From a virus (lineage: Duplodnaviria > Caudoviricetes): a stretch of 64,000 nucleotides of DNA. Under the pieces are notes generated by a model. That model saw only the letters and a program-made list of their open reading frames with translations. It ran no database searches and had not been told where the DNA came from. Below are positions 3,537 through 49,659 of the stretch, one piece after another. The stretch spans positions 1,135 to 65,134 of IMG/VR virus record IMGVR_UViG_3300050498_000117; one strand, given 5' to 3'. Every line of letters starts with the position of its first letter. The first letter of the stretch is position 1. Both the position numbers and the translations under genes were made by a program.

Positions 3537-3638
3537 GCCGGAAGTACCCGAAGTGGACACAACGGACTAGCTGCGTAGAGCCGCAGTGAAGGGGCTGGGT
3601 AGCGTCGGCCCACGCGGGTTCGAGTCCCGCCGCCGGTA
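3537..3638 (+). ncRNA. tRNA-like RNA (class II-like) with aberrant anticodon arm
   Basis: T arm GCGGG-TTCGAGT-CCCGC, variable-arm hairpin GGGCTG/CGGCCC, CTGCG/CGCAG stem with 6-nt loop TAGAGC, 5 of 7 acceptor pairs. Confidence 0.55.
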
Positions 3639-3641
3639 CAA

Positions 3642-3779
3642 GGGTTGACCTGTGTGCAGATTGGGGCTACTTCTCCTGTTAAGAGGGTGGTCCAGGTTCA
3701 AATCCTGGCGGGGGCTTCGGCTCCCGTAGCTCAACGGCAGAGCACCATGTACCTCGGTCGACTGGTTCTAGGTCAACCC
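3642..3779 (+). ncRNA. yrlA: YrlA-like Y RNA / circularly permuted tRNA-Asn mimic
   Basis: Terminal stem GGGTTGACCT/AGGTCAACCC; order anticodon-like arm (CTGTTAA), T arm, acceptor stem closed by TTCG, D arm; GGTCGA in lower stem. Confidence 0.75.
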
Positions 3780-3782
3780 GTC

Positions 3783-21011: not shown

Positions 21012-21117
21012 TGAGGGGGGGTGAGGATTCGAACCTCACTCGAGAGGAGTCCGGCCAGAGCCGGCTACGCGGGACTCCTCACTGTGCAGCCGCTAGCCTG
21101 TGCGGGCTAGCCCCCCC
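21012..21117 (-). ncRNA. tRNA-like RNA without anticodon loop
   Basis: G7/C7 acceptor, 6-bp hairpin CTAGCC/GGCTAG, long stem GAGGAGTCC/GGACTCCTC, canonical T arm TGAGG-TTCGAAT-CCTCA. Confidence 0.6.
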
Positions 21118-21665: not shown

Positions 21666-21730
21666 TACCTCGTTCCGGAATCGAACCGGCCTTCCGCCTA
21701 GGACGGACGCTCACCTGAGATCTACGAGGC
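21666..21730 (-). tRNA. Compact degenerate tRNA with CTA (amber) anticodon
   Basis: GCCTCGT/ACGAGGT acceptor, reduced D arm, TCCG/CGGA stem with loop TCCTAGG, CCGG-TTCGATT-CCGG T arm; 65 nt. Confidence 0.5.
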
Positions 21731-38366: not shown

Positions 38367-38773
38367 GACGCCCTACCGTCGACCGGGGGCAGGGTAGTGA
38401 TCCGGCGGGCGGAGGTCTTCTTCGCCCGCCGGGCCGCCCGGTTGTCGTCCGCCCCGTCGCTCCACAGCCGCAGGATTGTGATCAGTAGGCCCATGACTTC
38501 TTCACCTGTGAAGGTCGAGTCGGCCATCCTGTCCTCGATCCAATCCCAGTCGGCCTGGTCGTGGATGAGGGCAGCGATGAGGGTGAACAGCCGATTGAGC
38601 GCCGAAAGCTGACGCGCGAACTGGGCGGCGTTCGCCGGGTCGGCCTCCTCGCCGTAGTTCCGGCGCCAGAAGCCCATCCGCACCAGCACAGCCAACTGAC
38701 CTTCGTTGGGCTTGACGGTCTGGATGGTGCGGCCCCCGAACTCGACCGGCCGGGTCTCCGTCTGCTCTGTCAT
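38363..38773 (-). CDS. Tail assembly chaperone
   Basis: Position; coupled GTGA overlap. Confidence 0.6.
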   Translation of the reverse strand: MTEQTETRPVEFGGRTIQTVKPNEGQLAVLVRMGFWRRNYGEEADPANAAQFARQLSALNRLFTLIAALIHDQADWDWIEDRMADSTFTGEEVMGLLITILRLWSDGADDNRAARRAKKTSARRITTLPPVDGRAS

Positions 38774-47358: not shown

Positions 47359-47435
47359 GTGTGACGACGGGATTCGAACCCGCACCCGGTACCGGCCAAC
47401 GGCTTTCCCTGTGCTGCCACTTACACCACGTCACG
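47359..47435 (-). ncRNA. tRNA-like RNA with remodelled anticodon arm
   Basis: CGTGACG/CGTCACA acceptor, D arm GTGT-AAGTGGCA-GCAC, T arm GCGGG-TTCGAAT-CCCGT; 22-nt irregular central arm. Confidence 0.65.
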
Positions 47436-48109: not shown

Positions 48110-48967
48110 TCAGTGACCGATCTTGGTGGCGTGCGCCGGGCTGGTCGGAGCAATCGCATCGACGTAGTCCGGGTCCAGCAGGAGCGCAGCCTCCGCGAAC
48201 GCCTCCGCGTCGCGGGCCTTCGCGTCGAGCTGGTCGATCTGGGCCTTCGCCTCGGCGGCAGCCTTGTCGGCGGCGCGCTTGTCCTTGCGGGCCTGCGCCG
48301 CGTCGACCTTCGCCTGAACGGCAGCGGCCTTGTTGGCTGCGCGGGTCGCGGCGGCGGTGACCTTACGGGCGCACTGCGCGGCGGTGGTGCAGGTCTTGGG
48401 ATGGGTGCAACCGGCCACCGTGACGATGATCTGCGCCGGGGCGGCGATGGCCTGCTCCTCGTTCTCCAGCTCGGTGAAGTCGACACCAATCGCGGTGGCG
48501 GCCCACTTGATGGCACCGACGGCGGCGACGGTGATCGCGAACACGGCCGCCTCGACAACCCAGCCGAGGTGGGCCAGCTCGATCGGCAGCGAGGCCAGCA
48601 CGTTGATGAGCATGCTGACCACGATCAGGCCGACGAAGACCCGGGTGGCGCGGCGCTTGGCTTCGTGCTTCATGGCCACGGTCTGCGCCTGGATCATCAT
48701 GGCGATCATGCCGAGGTCGAAGACACCCGGGATGAGCAGGCCAAGCTTGCCGACGATGGCGGCGAGGAACTCGGCCTGGTGGCCGTAGGTGGCGATGAGG
48801 CCAACGAACAGAACGACCGTGGTGATCAGGCCGACCCGCTCGATCGCCTTGACGGCGTTCGGAGCGGCTTTCTTCGATTGGATCCGACGGTACTCAGCGG
48901 CAGGGCTGACCACGTCAGCGGTGGCGGCCTGGGCGATCTGGGCGACCTGACGGGCGAAGCGGAACAT
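48110..48967 (-). CDS. Multi-TM DUF2637/SpdA-like protein with coiled-coil tail
   Basis: Four TM helices, LLIPGVFD, SMLINV; resembles actinomycete plasmid spread proteins. Confidence 0.55.
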   Translation of the reverse strand: MFRFARQVAQIAQAATADVVSPAAEYRRIQSKKAAPNAVKAIERVGLITTVVLFVGLIATYGHQAEFLAAIVGKLGLLIPGVFDLGMIAMMIQAQTVAMKHEAKRRATRVFVGLIVVSMLINVLASLPIELAHLGWVVEAAVFAITVAAVGAIKWAATAIGVDFTELENEEQAIAAPAQIIVTVAGCTHPKTCTTAAQCARKVTAAATRAANKAAAVQAKVDAAQARKDKRAADKAAAEAKAQIDQLDAKARDAEAFAEAALLLDPDYVDAIAPTSPAHATKIGH

Positions 48968-49061
48968 GATGTGTCCTCCAAGGACTGGGACGGTTCCGGG
49001 TGCTGCTCGCGTGGGAGCACTCGGCGGAACCGAAGACTGTGGGGTGCCCGAACGGGCCCCG

Positions 49062-49137
49062 TGGAACGCGCCGGAATCGAACCGACCCCCTCCCGGGGGC
49101 TATCGCCCTCGGAGCACCACCAGGTGCTTTGCGTCCC
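49062..49137 (-). ncRNA. Anticodon-less tRNA-like RNA with alanine identity
   Basis: GGGACGC/GCGTTCC-A (G3:U70, A73), D-like hairpin, central stem capped by GATA tetraloop, T arm GTCGG-TTCGATT-CCGGC. Confidence 0.7.
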
Positions 49138-49305
49138 GTGTACCGATTTTCTCCAGCGAGCGCCTTGTCTAGGGGCTTCCGGTTGACTGTGGTCTCGGCT
49201 ACAGGCGGTCAGTGGATTTCGGTATCCGGGGTTCGCTCCCCCGGCCTTCCCCTGCCGTTTCCCCTGTGCGTCCGTGTCCCGGCTCGGTCTGGAGTTGTGT
49301 CTTGC

Positions 49306-49420
49306 TGTCTTGCTTTCCTATACAGTGTAACCCGCTTACCCTGACTGTCAAGCCCTGTATTGCTGTGAACTACATCACACCTTGACAGACTCAGTAAGCT
49401 GTGTATGGTGACAACATACA
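49306..49420. promoter_or_regulatory. Divergent promoters with operators
   Basis: + TTGACA-N16-TATGGT with perfect operator 49402-49420; - TTGACA-N16-TACACT with degenerate operators. Confidence 0.85.
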
Positions 49421-49446
49421 GCACGGCCACAAGGAAGGACACACCC

Positions 49447-49659
49447 ATGAGCCGGCTACAGGAACTGATCAACGCACTACACAGGCAAGGCTTCACCCTC
49501 CGCCACAGCGGATCCGGCCACTACCAGGTACGCAACGCCGACGGCCAGGCGGTAGGGGCCCTGCCATGCAGCCCCTCGGATCATCGCAGCCTGAAGAACG
49601 CCGTAACGGCCCTGCGGAAGGGAGGGTTCGTCTGGGACCCCAAGCACGGCAGCAAGTAG
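49447..49659 (+). CDS. HicA-like toxin-fold protein
   Basis: LINALHRQGF....GSGHYQV......PSD.R...N...LRK.G. Confidence 0.75.
   Translation: MSRLQELINALHRQGFTLRHSGSGHYQVRNADGQAVGALPCSPSDHRSLKNAVTALRKGGFVWDPKHGSK

Follow-up and report, generated by a model that had tools for sequence, protein, structure and literature searches.

The window, i.e. the whole 64,000-nt stretch of DNA that was analyzed, comprises nearly all of a 65,134-bp virus record in IMG/VR and has a G+C content of 66%. Its capsid protein is closest to those of Actinoplanes, Microbacterium, Gordonia, and Mycobacterium phages, and the host is presumably an actinobacterium of high G+C content. The public runs that contain the window sequence are of DNA only (rhizosphere metagenomes); no RNA run was listed.

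The features considered here are collected in Table 1. On the minus strand, a sigma-70-type promoter is followed by a non-coding leader, a 76-nt tRNA-shaped element (denoted E1), a GC-rich hairpin, a conserved block that includes the ribosome-binding site, and the gene for a 285-aa protein. Leftward of this gene, the operon extends as far as the major capsid gene (45854-44196). An earlier, sequence-only reading had called a leftward promoter near 49350, upstream of E1, and a membrane protein gene after it, and both were recovered. The scan for sigma-70-type promoters returned two sites, compared to 0.2 expected. E1 starts about 180 nt behind the leftward promoter and lies 95 nt ahead of the start codon. 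None of the open reading frames between 48968 and 49404 passed the codon-position GC filter. The 285-aa protein matched no family, and a search of viral contigs with its back-translated sequence yielded short, spurious matches only.

The hairpin directly after E1 had a z-score of only -1 to -2 when compared to shuffles of the same GC-rich sequence. It is followed by no U tract, and the terminator scan reported no terminator there. When the whole leader was folded, the cloverleaf of E1 was not preserved and the result (z = -1.0) was no better than that of shuffled sequences, folds of such length being uninformative.

The gene behind the rightward promoter (49405-49659, plus strand) is a solitary, small, divergent gene with a sub-threshold match to the HicA toxin (26.3 bits; threshold, 27); it also matches PHROG 2089, which has no assigned function. 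A HicB-like partner was not visible beside it. In lineage K (see below), three small genes are found on that strand.

Table 1. Coordinates of the features described in the text (window positions unless a contig is named).
Feature	Position	Strand	Remarks
Rightward promoter	49382-49409	+	back to back with the leftward promoter; precedes the small HicA-like gene
Leftward sigma-70-type promoter	49351..49324	-	TTGACA-16-TACACT; 10/12 consensus positions
Non-coding 5' leader before E1	49138..49317	-	purine-rich; blocks conserved in K and M; presumed transcription start
E1, entire	49137..49062	-	76-nt cloverleaf
E1 acceptor, 5' strand	49137-49131	-	GGGACGC
E1 linker	49130-49129	-	AA
E1 D arm	49128-49113	-	AGCACC-UGGU-GGUGCU; 6-bp stem, UGGU loop
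E1 central hairpin	49112-49093	-	CCGAGGGC-GAUA-GCCCCCGG
E1 variable stretch	49092-49087	-	6 nt, unpaired
E1 T arm	49086-49070	-	GUCGG-UUCGAUU-CCGGC; canonical
E1 acceptor, 3' strand	49069-49063	-	GCGUUCC
E1 discriminator	49062	-	A73
GC-rich hairpin	49042..49060	-	starts 2 nt past the discriminator (one base between); -13.1 kcal/mol
Conserved leader block	48968..49041	-	second stem-loop and ribosome-binding site GGAGGA
285-aa protein gene	48110..48967	-	ATG at 48967; four hydrophobic segments, Ala/Lys-rich tail
E2	47359-47435	-	tRNA-shaped, no normal anticodon arm
E3	21014-21117	-	104 nt; followed by a 16-bp hairpin (z = -5.6), then a TTGACA box
E4	21666-21730	-	tRNA-shaped, no normal anticodon arm
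Weaker tRNA-shaped element	3537-3638	+	no normal anticodon arm
Two tandem tRNA mimics of lineage K	L007:6406-6492, L007:6661-6757	+	in the spacer equivalent to that of E2

Fold of E1

E1 adopts the normal topology of a tRNA. The seven acceptor pairs are G1:C72, G2:C71, G3:U70, A4:U69, C5:G68, G6:C67, and C7:G66, and in the central arm, a GAUA loop of 4 nt caps a stem of 8 bp that includes one A.C mismatch. All four stems are intact (26 pairs, one mismatch). The minimum-energy fold was exactly this cloverleaf (-43 kcal/mol, z = -3.0), and it was equaled by 2 of 200 shuffles. A strict descriptor was also used, in which a T loop of the form GTTCRANNC, a 5/5 T stem, and an adjoining 7-nt strand that pairs 7/7 with a partner located 60-110 nt upstream were stipulated. 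Two sites in the window matched it, namely E1 and E3; the mean for shuffled sequences was 0.02, and two matches were reached in none of 300 shuffles. The tRNA shape of E1 is real and far beyond chance.

The acceptor pairs G1:C72, G2:C71, and G3:U70, A73, and the canonical T arm that had been described for E1 were thus borne out. It had further been proposed that the anticodon loop is replaced by a GNRA tetraloop. A hairpin with a GAUA cap does stand in its place, but because the third residue of this cap is a pyrimidine (U), it does not strictly qualify as a GNRA tetraloop. After A73, the DNA encodes CGG rather than CCA.

Comparison of E1 with known RNA classes

E1 was not called when the window was scanned with ARAGORN, and no Rfam match to it reached the gathering score. 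The features of canonical tRNA (RF00005) that are present in E1 are the 7-bp acceptor, the 5-bp T stem, a T loop that fits UUCRANY, and the GG of the D loop; the anticodon arm (a 5-bp stem and a 7-nt loop with U33 and an anticodon) is not present. The element can be called a tRNA mimic that is unable to decode, as the sequence-only reading had it. The best Rfam match was to tRNA-Sec (RF01852), with 30.3 bits against a gathering score of 47, and it rested on a Sec-like D arm. Both RNAs have a 6-bp D stem with a 4-nt UGGU loop as well as an extended central stem. However, the acceptor/T arrangement of E1 is 7/5 rather than 8/5, and E1 lacks both the UCA anticodon loop and the long variable arm of tRNA-Sec.

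In tmRNA, the tRNA-like domain is formed by distant 5' and 3' ends, which lie around a tag reading frame and pseudoknots. No tmRNA was found in the window by ARAGORN, and the Rfam tmRNA models had no match at E1. E1 shares with this domain the missing anticodon and the AlaRS set of G1:C72, G2:C71, G3:U70, and A73; it differs from tmRNA and tRNA-Ala in that its counterparts in lineages K and M lack G3:U70. The 76 nt of E1 form a single uninterrupted cloverleaf that includes a full D arm and no tag reading frame; this is not the architecture of tmRNA, and it does not support the suggestion that E1 mimics tmRNA.

The identification of E1 as a Y RNA was rejected: the YrlA model (RF02553) had no match at E1 in a 500-nt search with E-values of up to 10, and the phage has no TROVE gene. 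The Ro60-binding motif GNCGAAN0-1G (PMC4201824) occurs with one mismatch in the central arm of W and with one in that of K/M, which is not significant. Like E1, YrlA is a non-decoding tRNA mimic known from Actinobacteria and from phages that infect them (Chen et al. 2014, PMC4201824). YrlA is circularly permuted, has both of its termini in the Ro60-binding stem, has an acceptor stem closed by a loop, and adjoins the Ro60 gene (PMC4201824), and E1 has none of these characteristics. [quoted passage not shown]

An attP site overlapping a tRNA gene was likewise rejected, since the phage has no tyrosine or serine recombinase and E1 is a complete cloverleaf rather than a partial copy. The tRNA-like decoys described in the AcrIIIA1 and jumbo-phage papers had no bearing on E1.

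A DNA search of a phage collection with the E1 region, in near and distant modes, gave no match, and exact-pattern scans for the W-type D arm, alone or together with the T loop, found none in viral or metagenome contigs. With a Python descriptor for a 6-bp D stem and an NGGN loop, E1 and the lineage K element K-B were the only intergenic elements of such a build; the two could not be aligned by MAFFT.

Homologous leaders in three lineages

Homologues were sought via the capsid protein, the 285-aa protein, and the conserved leader block, and three versions of the leader resulted: W (the window and the near-identical contig L060), K (L007 and many contigs identical to it), and M (L071 and L072). 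No new variant of E1 was contributed by the contigs that matched the E1 region, and the W-type element is known only from the window phage and L060. A genome scan with the capsid protein returned distant Streptomyces prophages only (34-43% identity).

Common to W, K, and M are the promoter, the leader blocks, a tRNA-shaped element, a hairpin directly after it, and a conserved block before the start codon. The -35 box of the leftward promoter is conserved in K and M, as is the ensuing TGTATAGG. Identity in the leader blocks amounts to 72% for W and K and to 87% for K and M; for the block before the start codon, it is 81-85% among the three. Some blocks within the leader (49138-49317, minus strand), such as GGCAGGGGAAG and CGAAAUCCACUGA, hardly differ among W, K, and M. 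Such near-invariance suggests that the leader itself may be a functional RNA that RNase P could release.

The K and M elements are cloverleaves of 96-99 nt that feature a long central arm, a canonical T arm, and the acceptor GGGUCCG/CAGACCC with one C.A mismatch. Both have G3:C70 as the third acceptor pair; the K element carries a G as its discriminator and the M element an A. The D-like hairpin is capped by UACG in K and by GUGA in M. The GG of the D loop is missing from both elements, so a canonical elbow would not be expected in them, and Rfam found nothing tRNA-like in the K element. The central arm is nearly invariant in sequence between K and M, and that of W has a CGA-containing core in common with it. 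In all three variants, a GC hairpin, differing in sequence, is located 1-3 nt after the element. Overall, the M element is 85% identical to that of K and about 60% identical to that of W.

Ten pairs of the acceptor and T stems could be aligned in W, K, and M. All 30 of the resulting cells are paired, compared to 25-67% when the partners are slid, and both sides have changed at three pairs: 4:69 (A:U/U:A), 50:64 (U:G/G:C/A:U), and 51:63 (C:G/A:U). The diverged acceptor and T stems of K and M are kept by compensatory change, and the covariation statistics are thin, as there are only three independent variants. The T loop UUCGA is invariant across W, K, and M.

The M lineage is a mosaic. Over residues 1-199, its 285-aa product is 99.5% identical to that of the window, yet the element upstream of the gene is of the K type. 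Two differing tRNA-shaped modules thus serve one site and are interchangeable, i.e. the site needs the shape rather than a particular sequence or alanine identity. When L072:90-590 was compared to window positions 48950-49360, a sharp mosaic boundary was evident, with the promoter, leader, and mimic of M being K-type. The recombination joint therefore falls between the mimic and the start codon.

Other tRNA-like elements in the window and in related phages

The window contains at least three further tRNA mimics that have no anticodon (Table 1). They lie between genes on the coding strand, and none was called by ARAGORN. E2 is a discrete, conserved unit: contigs in three runs match exactly 47359-47435 and have unlike flanks. 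In the M copy of E2, the central hairpin is kept by a paired insertion (GCC-GUU-GGC to GCCC-CUAU-GGGC). Both E2 and the lineage K element K-C end about 16 nt ahead of a ribosome-binding site, with no hairpin between. K-B, the first of the tandem K mimics, has a 6-bp D stem, a UGGU loop, a 9-bp central hairpin, and A73, and it has little sequence identity to E1. In a variant of K-B in contig L064, the fifth acceptor pair is broken. In G002, a complete relative, another long tRNA mimic precedes a co-oriented gene by 36 nt. More distant relatives (L010, L020, and L034) have true tRNA genes just upstream of the capsid gene, which indicates that the mimics probably descend from a tRNA island.

Other tRNA fragments occur in the window around 3537-3780. 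A weak Rfam match to YrlA (3642-3779, plus strand; 30 bits, below the 69-bit threshold) lies beside a tRNA-Met. A second match to YrlA, also beside a tRNA-Met, was found in G002 (L069:835-949, minus strand) and extended over the full model with 38 bits, again below 69. If real, such an RNA would have to use the Ro60 of the host, since the phage has no TROVE/Ro60 gene. Next to this pair, G002 has a tRNA with a CUA (amber) anticodon (L069:745-816, minus strand), which was labeled tRNA-Pyl by ARAGORN and scored 40 bits with the Rfam tRNA model. Elsewhere in the window (38495-38675, plus strand), there is a sub-threshold Rfam match to group II intron D1-D4-6 (29.9 bits against 49, E = 1e-4), which is situated inside a leftward block of structural genes.

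E1 as a candidate RNA-processing handle

E1 is more likely a cut-here signal for the tRNA-trimming enzymes of the host than an alanine carrier, because its counterparts in related phages lack the alanine marks. In its full form, this reading holds that E1 is a tRNA-derived processing and stability handle that would be cut by host RNase P/RNase Z, by analogy to the t-elements of plant mitochondria; we give it about an even chance of being correct. The acceptor/T-arm helix and the T loop are the features that are read by RNase P, RNase Z, and the CCA-adding enzyme. As judged from the aligned sequences, selection keeps precisely this helix and loop, and the decoding arm is rebuilt into stable hairpins. 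The D and central arms of K and M, with their D-like hairpins capped by UACG or GUGA, are likewise rebuilt rather than decayed.

The fold, the position, the compensatory conservation, and the interchangeability of the modules were observed; the following series of cleavages and effects on the message is what we infer. The operon extends from the 285-aa gene towards the capsid gene, and the module would be transcribed as part of its leader of ca. 350 nt. Cleavage by RNase P at G1 would detach the conserved upstream leader, which would perhaps be matured as a separate RNA, and the 3' end would be generated after A73, either by RNase Z or by trimming. The message left downstream would have the GC hairpin at its start, or the tRNA-shaped fold if RNase P alone cuts, and either 5' structure would shield the message from decay that depends on the 5' end. 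The released 76-nt RNA would probably gain CCA; in the W lineage, it may be alanylated as a by-product of G3:U70.

Immediately 5' of the element, K and M show no sequence conservation, whereas their elements are 85% identical; a flank that is free to vary, unlike the element and the block after it, is as expected of an RNase P leader. The presence of a hairpin after each of the three elements and the intergenic, coding-strand location of the sister elements are also consistent with a processing handle. The lack of a GG D loop in K and M, the lack of anything tRNA-like in K according to Rfam, and the low z-score of the hairpin after the element argue against it. The near-invariance of the K/M central arm hints at a specific binding partner, which would speak against a pure cut-here signal, and the hairpin after E1 could instead be a terminator that has no U tract.

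Alternative readings

E1 might act in trans as a free small RNA, i.e. it might sequester a host protein with affinity for the acceptor/T arm, as a decoy or sponge, or serve as a Y-RNA-like partner of host Ro60; this is unlikely. A defence nuclease, RNase P or Z, the CCA enzyme, and EF-Tu were considered as targets of a decoy. The YrlA-like RNAs beside tRNA-Met (30 and 38 bits in Rfam), if they are real, place trans-acting tRNA-mimic RNAs in this phage group. A partner that reads the central arm would fit both its near-invariance in K/M and the CGA-containing core common to W, and the hairpin after E1 suits the layout of a stand-alone RNA gene. A Ro60 partner is disfavored by the lack of a TROVE/Ro60 gene in the phage, by the failure of the Rfam YrlA model to match E1 even at E-values of up to 10 in the 500-nt search, and by the normal, unpermuted tRNA topology. 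For partners in general, W and K/M differ at about 40% of their aligned positions, chiefly in the arms that a partner could read.

It is similarly improbable that E1 is a functionless relic, that is, a decaying but not yet eroded tRNA gene left over from the island of tRNA genes that precedes the capsid gene in related phages. The true tRNA genes at this location in L010, L020, and L034, the other tRNA fragments of the window (around 3537-3780), and the restriction of the W type to the window phage and one near-identical contig would all suit a relic. A decaying gene would not, however, be expected to retain four intact stems with a single mismatch among 26 pairs. The anticodon arm of E1 is 3 nt longer than a real one and makes a better hairpin, which indicates that it was rebuilt, not eroded. 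The compensatory changes in the T stem of K/M and the paired insertion by which the E2 hairpin is kept point in the same direction, as does the existence of at least four elements in which only the decoding loop is lost.

A further proposal is that transcription from the leftward promoter stops at the hairpin after E1, giving a short leader RNA of about 280 nt, and that a phage factor brings about read-through into the operon, as in the PR'-6S-tR' system of lambda. In its favor are the strong promoter, the length and conservation of the non-coding leader, and a GC hairpin whose structure is maintained in all three variants, and the promoters are overlapped by operator-like palindromes. U tracts are often missing from actinobacterial terminators. 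But no canonical terminator was detected, and E2 and K-C stand directly before ribosome-binding sites without any hairpin. The tRNA shape is also left without a reason, and we regard this proposal as quite improbable.

Finally, the sequence-only reading had proposed that E1 is a chargeable, non-decoding alanine carrier that could feed transferases, mimic the tRNA-like domain of tmRNA, or titrate EF-Tu/SmpB. E1 would then be selected for alanine acceptance and would be processed, gain CCA, and be charged by the AlaRS of the host. G3:U70 in the acceptor helix suffices for AlaRS, which ignores the anticodon. Both G3:U70 and A73 are present in E1, together with G1:C72, G2:C71, an intact T arm, and the GG of the D loop, and no other tRNA mimic of the window phage or of K has G3:U70. 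Once it bears CCA, the W-type RNA would probably be a fair substrate for AlaRS, given the sufficiency of G3:U70. Conservation of G3:U70 in homologues had been named as one check on the proposal, and its loss as one ground for abandoning it; at the same site, K and M have G3:C70, and K has G73 in addition. The M phage combines its G3:C70 module with a downstream gene 99.5% identical to that of the window. The phage genes were searched for a FemAB-type transferase, a TROVE/Ro60 protein, a CCA-adding enzyme, and an integrase, and none was present; ARAGORN found no tmRNA in the window. In a genome with at least five tRNA mimics, chance alone could well place one G:U at the third acceptor pair. The absence of G3:U70 in K/M and the lack of a Fem-type transferase, CCA enzyme, and Ro60 indicate that alanylation is not the selected trait; in W-type E1, it is plausible but probably incidental, and selection of E1 as an alanine carrier is very improbable. 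Equally slim is the possibility that the complete AlaRS set is a recent acquisition of this lineage and that the processed, CCA-bearing, alanylated, non-decoding RNA has been put to use. If so, it could titrate AlaRS/EF-Tu or provide alanine outside of translation, and it would be a phage-made aminoacyl-RNA with a non-ribosomal role.

Should the processing-handle reading be correct, phages of high-GC bacteria would split and stabilize their long transcripts by mitochondria-like punctuation at tRNA mimics. Such elements are missed by tRNA finders and are consequently left unannotated, and the reading would explain many of the "broken" phage tRNAs in which only the acceptor and T half is retained. 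The W (G3:U70) and M (G3:C70) modules, standing before genes whose products are 99.5% identical, constitute a natural experiment, and this pair can separate a role in processing from any role in alanylation.

Comparison with known systems

The use of non-decoding tRNA mimics as processing signals is already known. The tRNA-punctuation principle of mitochondria is a kindred system. Among phages, tRNA-shaped RNase P/RNase Z handles are represented by the C4 RNA precursor of P1/P7, which is processed by RNase P, and by the stable tRNA-like RNAs of T4 and T5; further examples are the tRNA-like/pre-miRNA units of murine gammaherpesvirus 68 (MHV68) and the mascRNA of MALAT1. In each of them, RNase P or RNase Z is recruited by the tRNA-shaped fold and thereby sets the ends of an adjacent RNA. 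The MHV68 units resemble E1 in that a hairpin directly follows the tRNA-like fold. All of these RNAs belong to other hosts and lineages and have no sequence relationship to E1, and to our knowledge none has been described for the operon leader of an actinophage. A literature search found no paper on elements of this kind in actinophage operon leaders, nor on a tRNA in the late operon of phiC31; it is the location in such a leader for which no paper was found.

The closest counterparts are the t-elements of plant mitochondria, tRNA-like folds that set the ends of mRNAs (Forner et al. 2007, PMC1920247). As a candidate signal of this kind, E1 differs from them in that it occurs in a phage of a presumed actinobacterial host and is a complete, four-arm cloverleaf. 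Like the t-elements, which are non-decoding, tRNA-like folds in mRNA leaders and spacers that keep the acceptor and T-arm features for RNase P/RNase Z (PMC1920247), E1 does not decode, lies within an mRNA leader on its sense strand, and has a tRNA-like fold in which selection has kept the acceptor and T arm.
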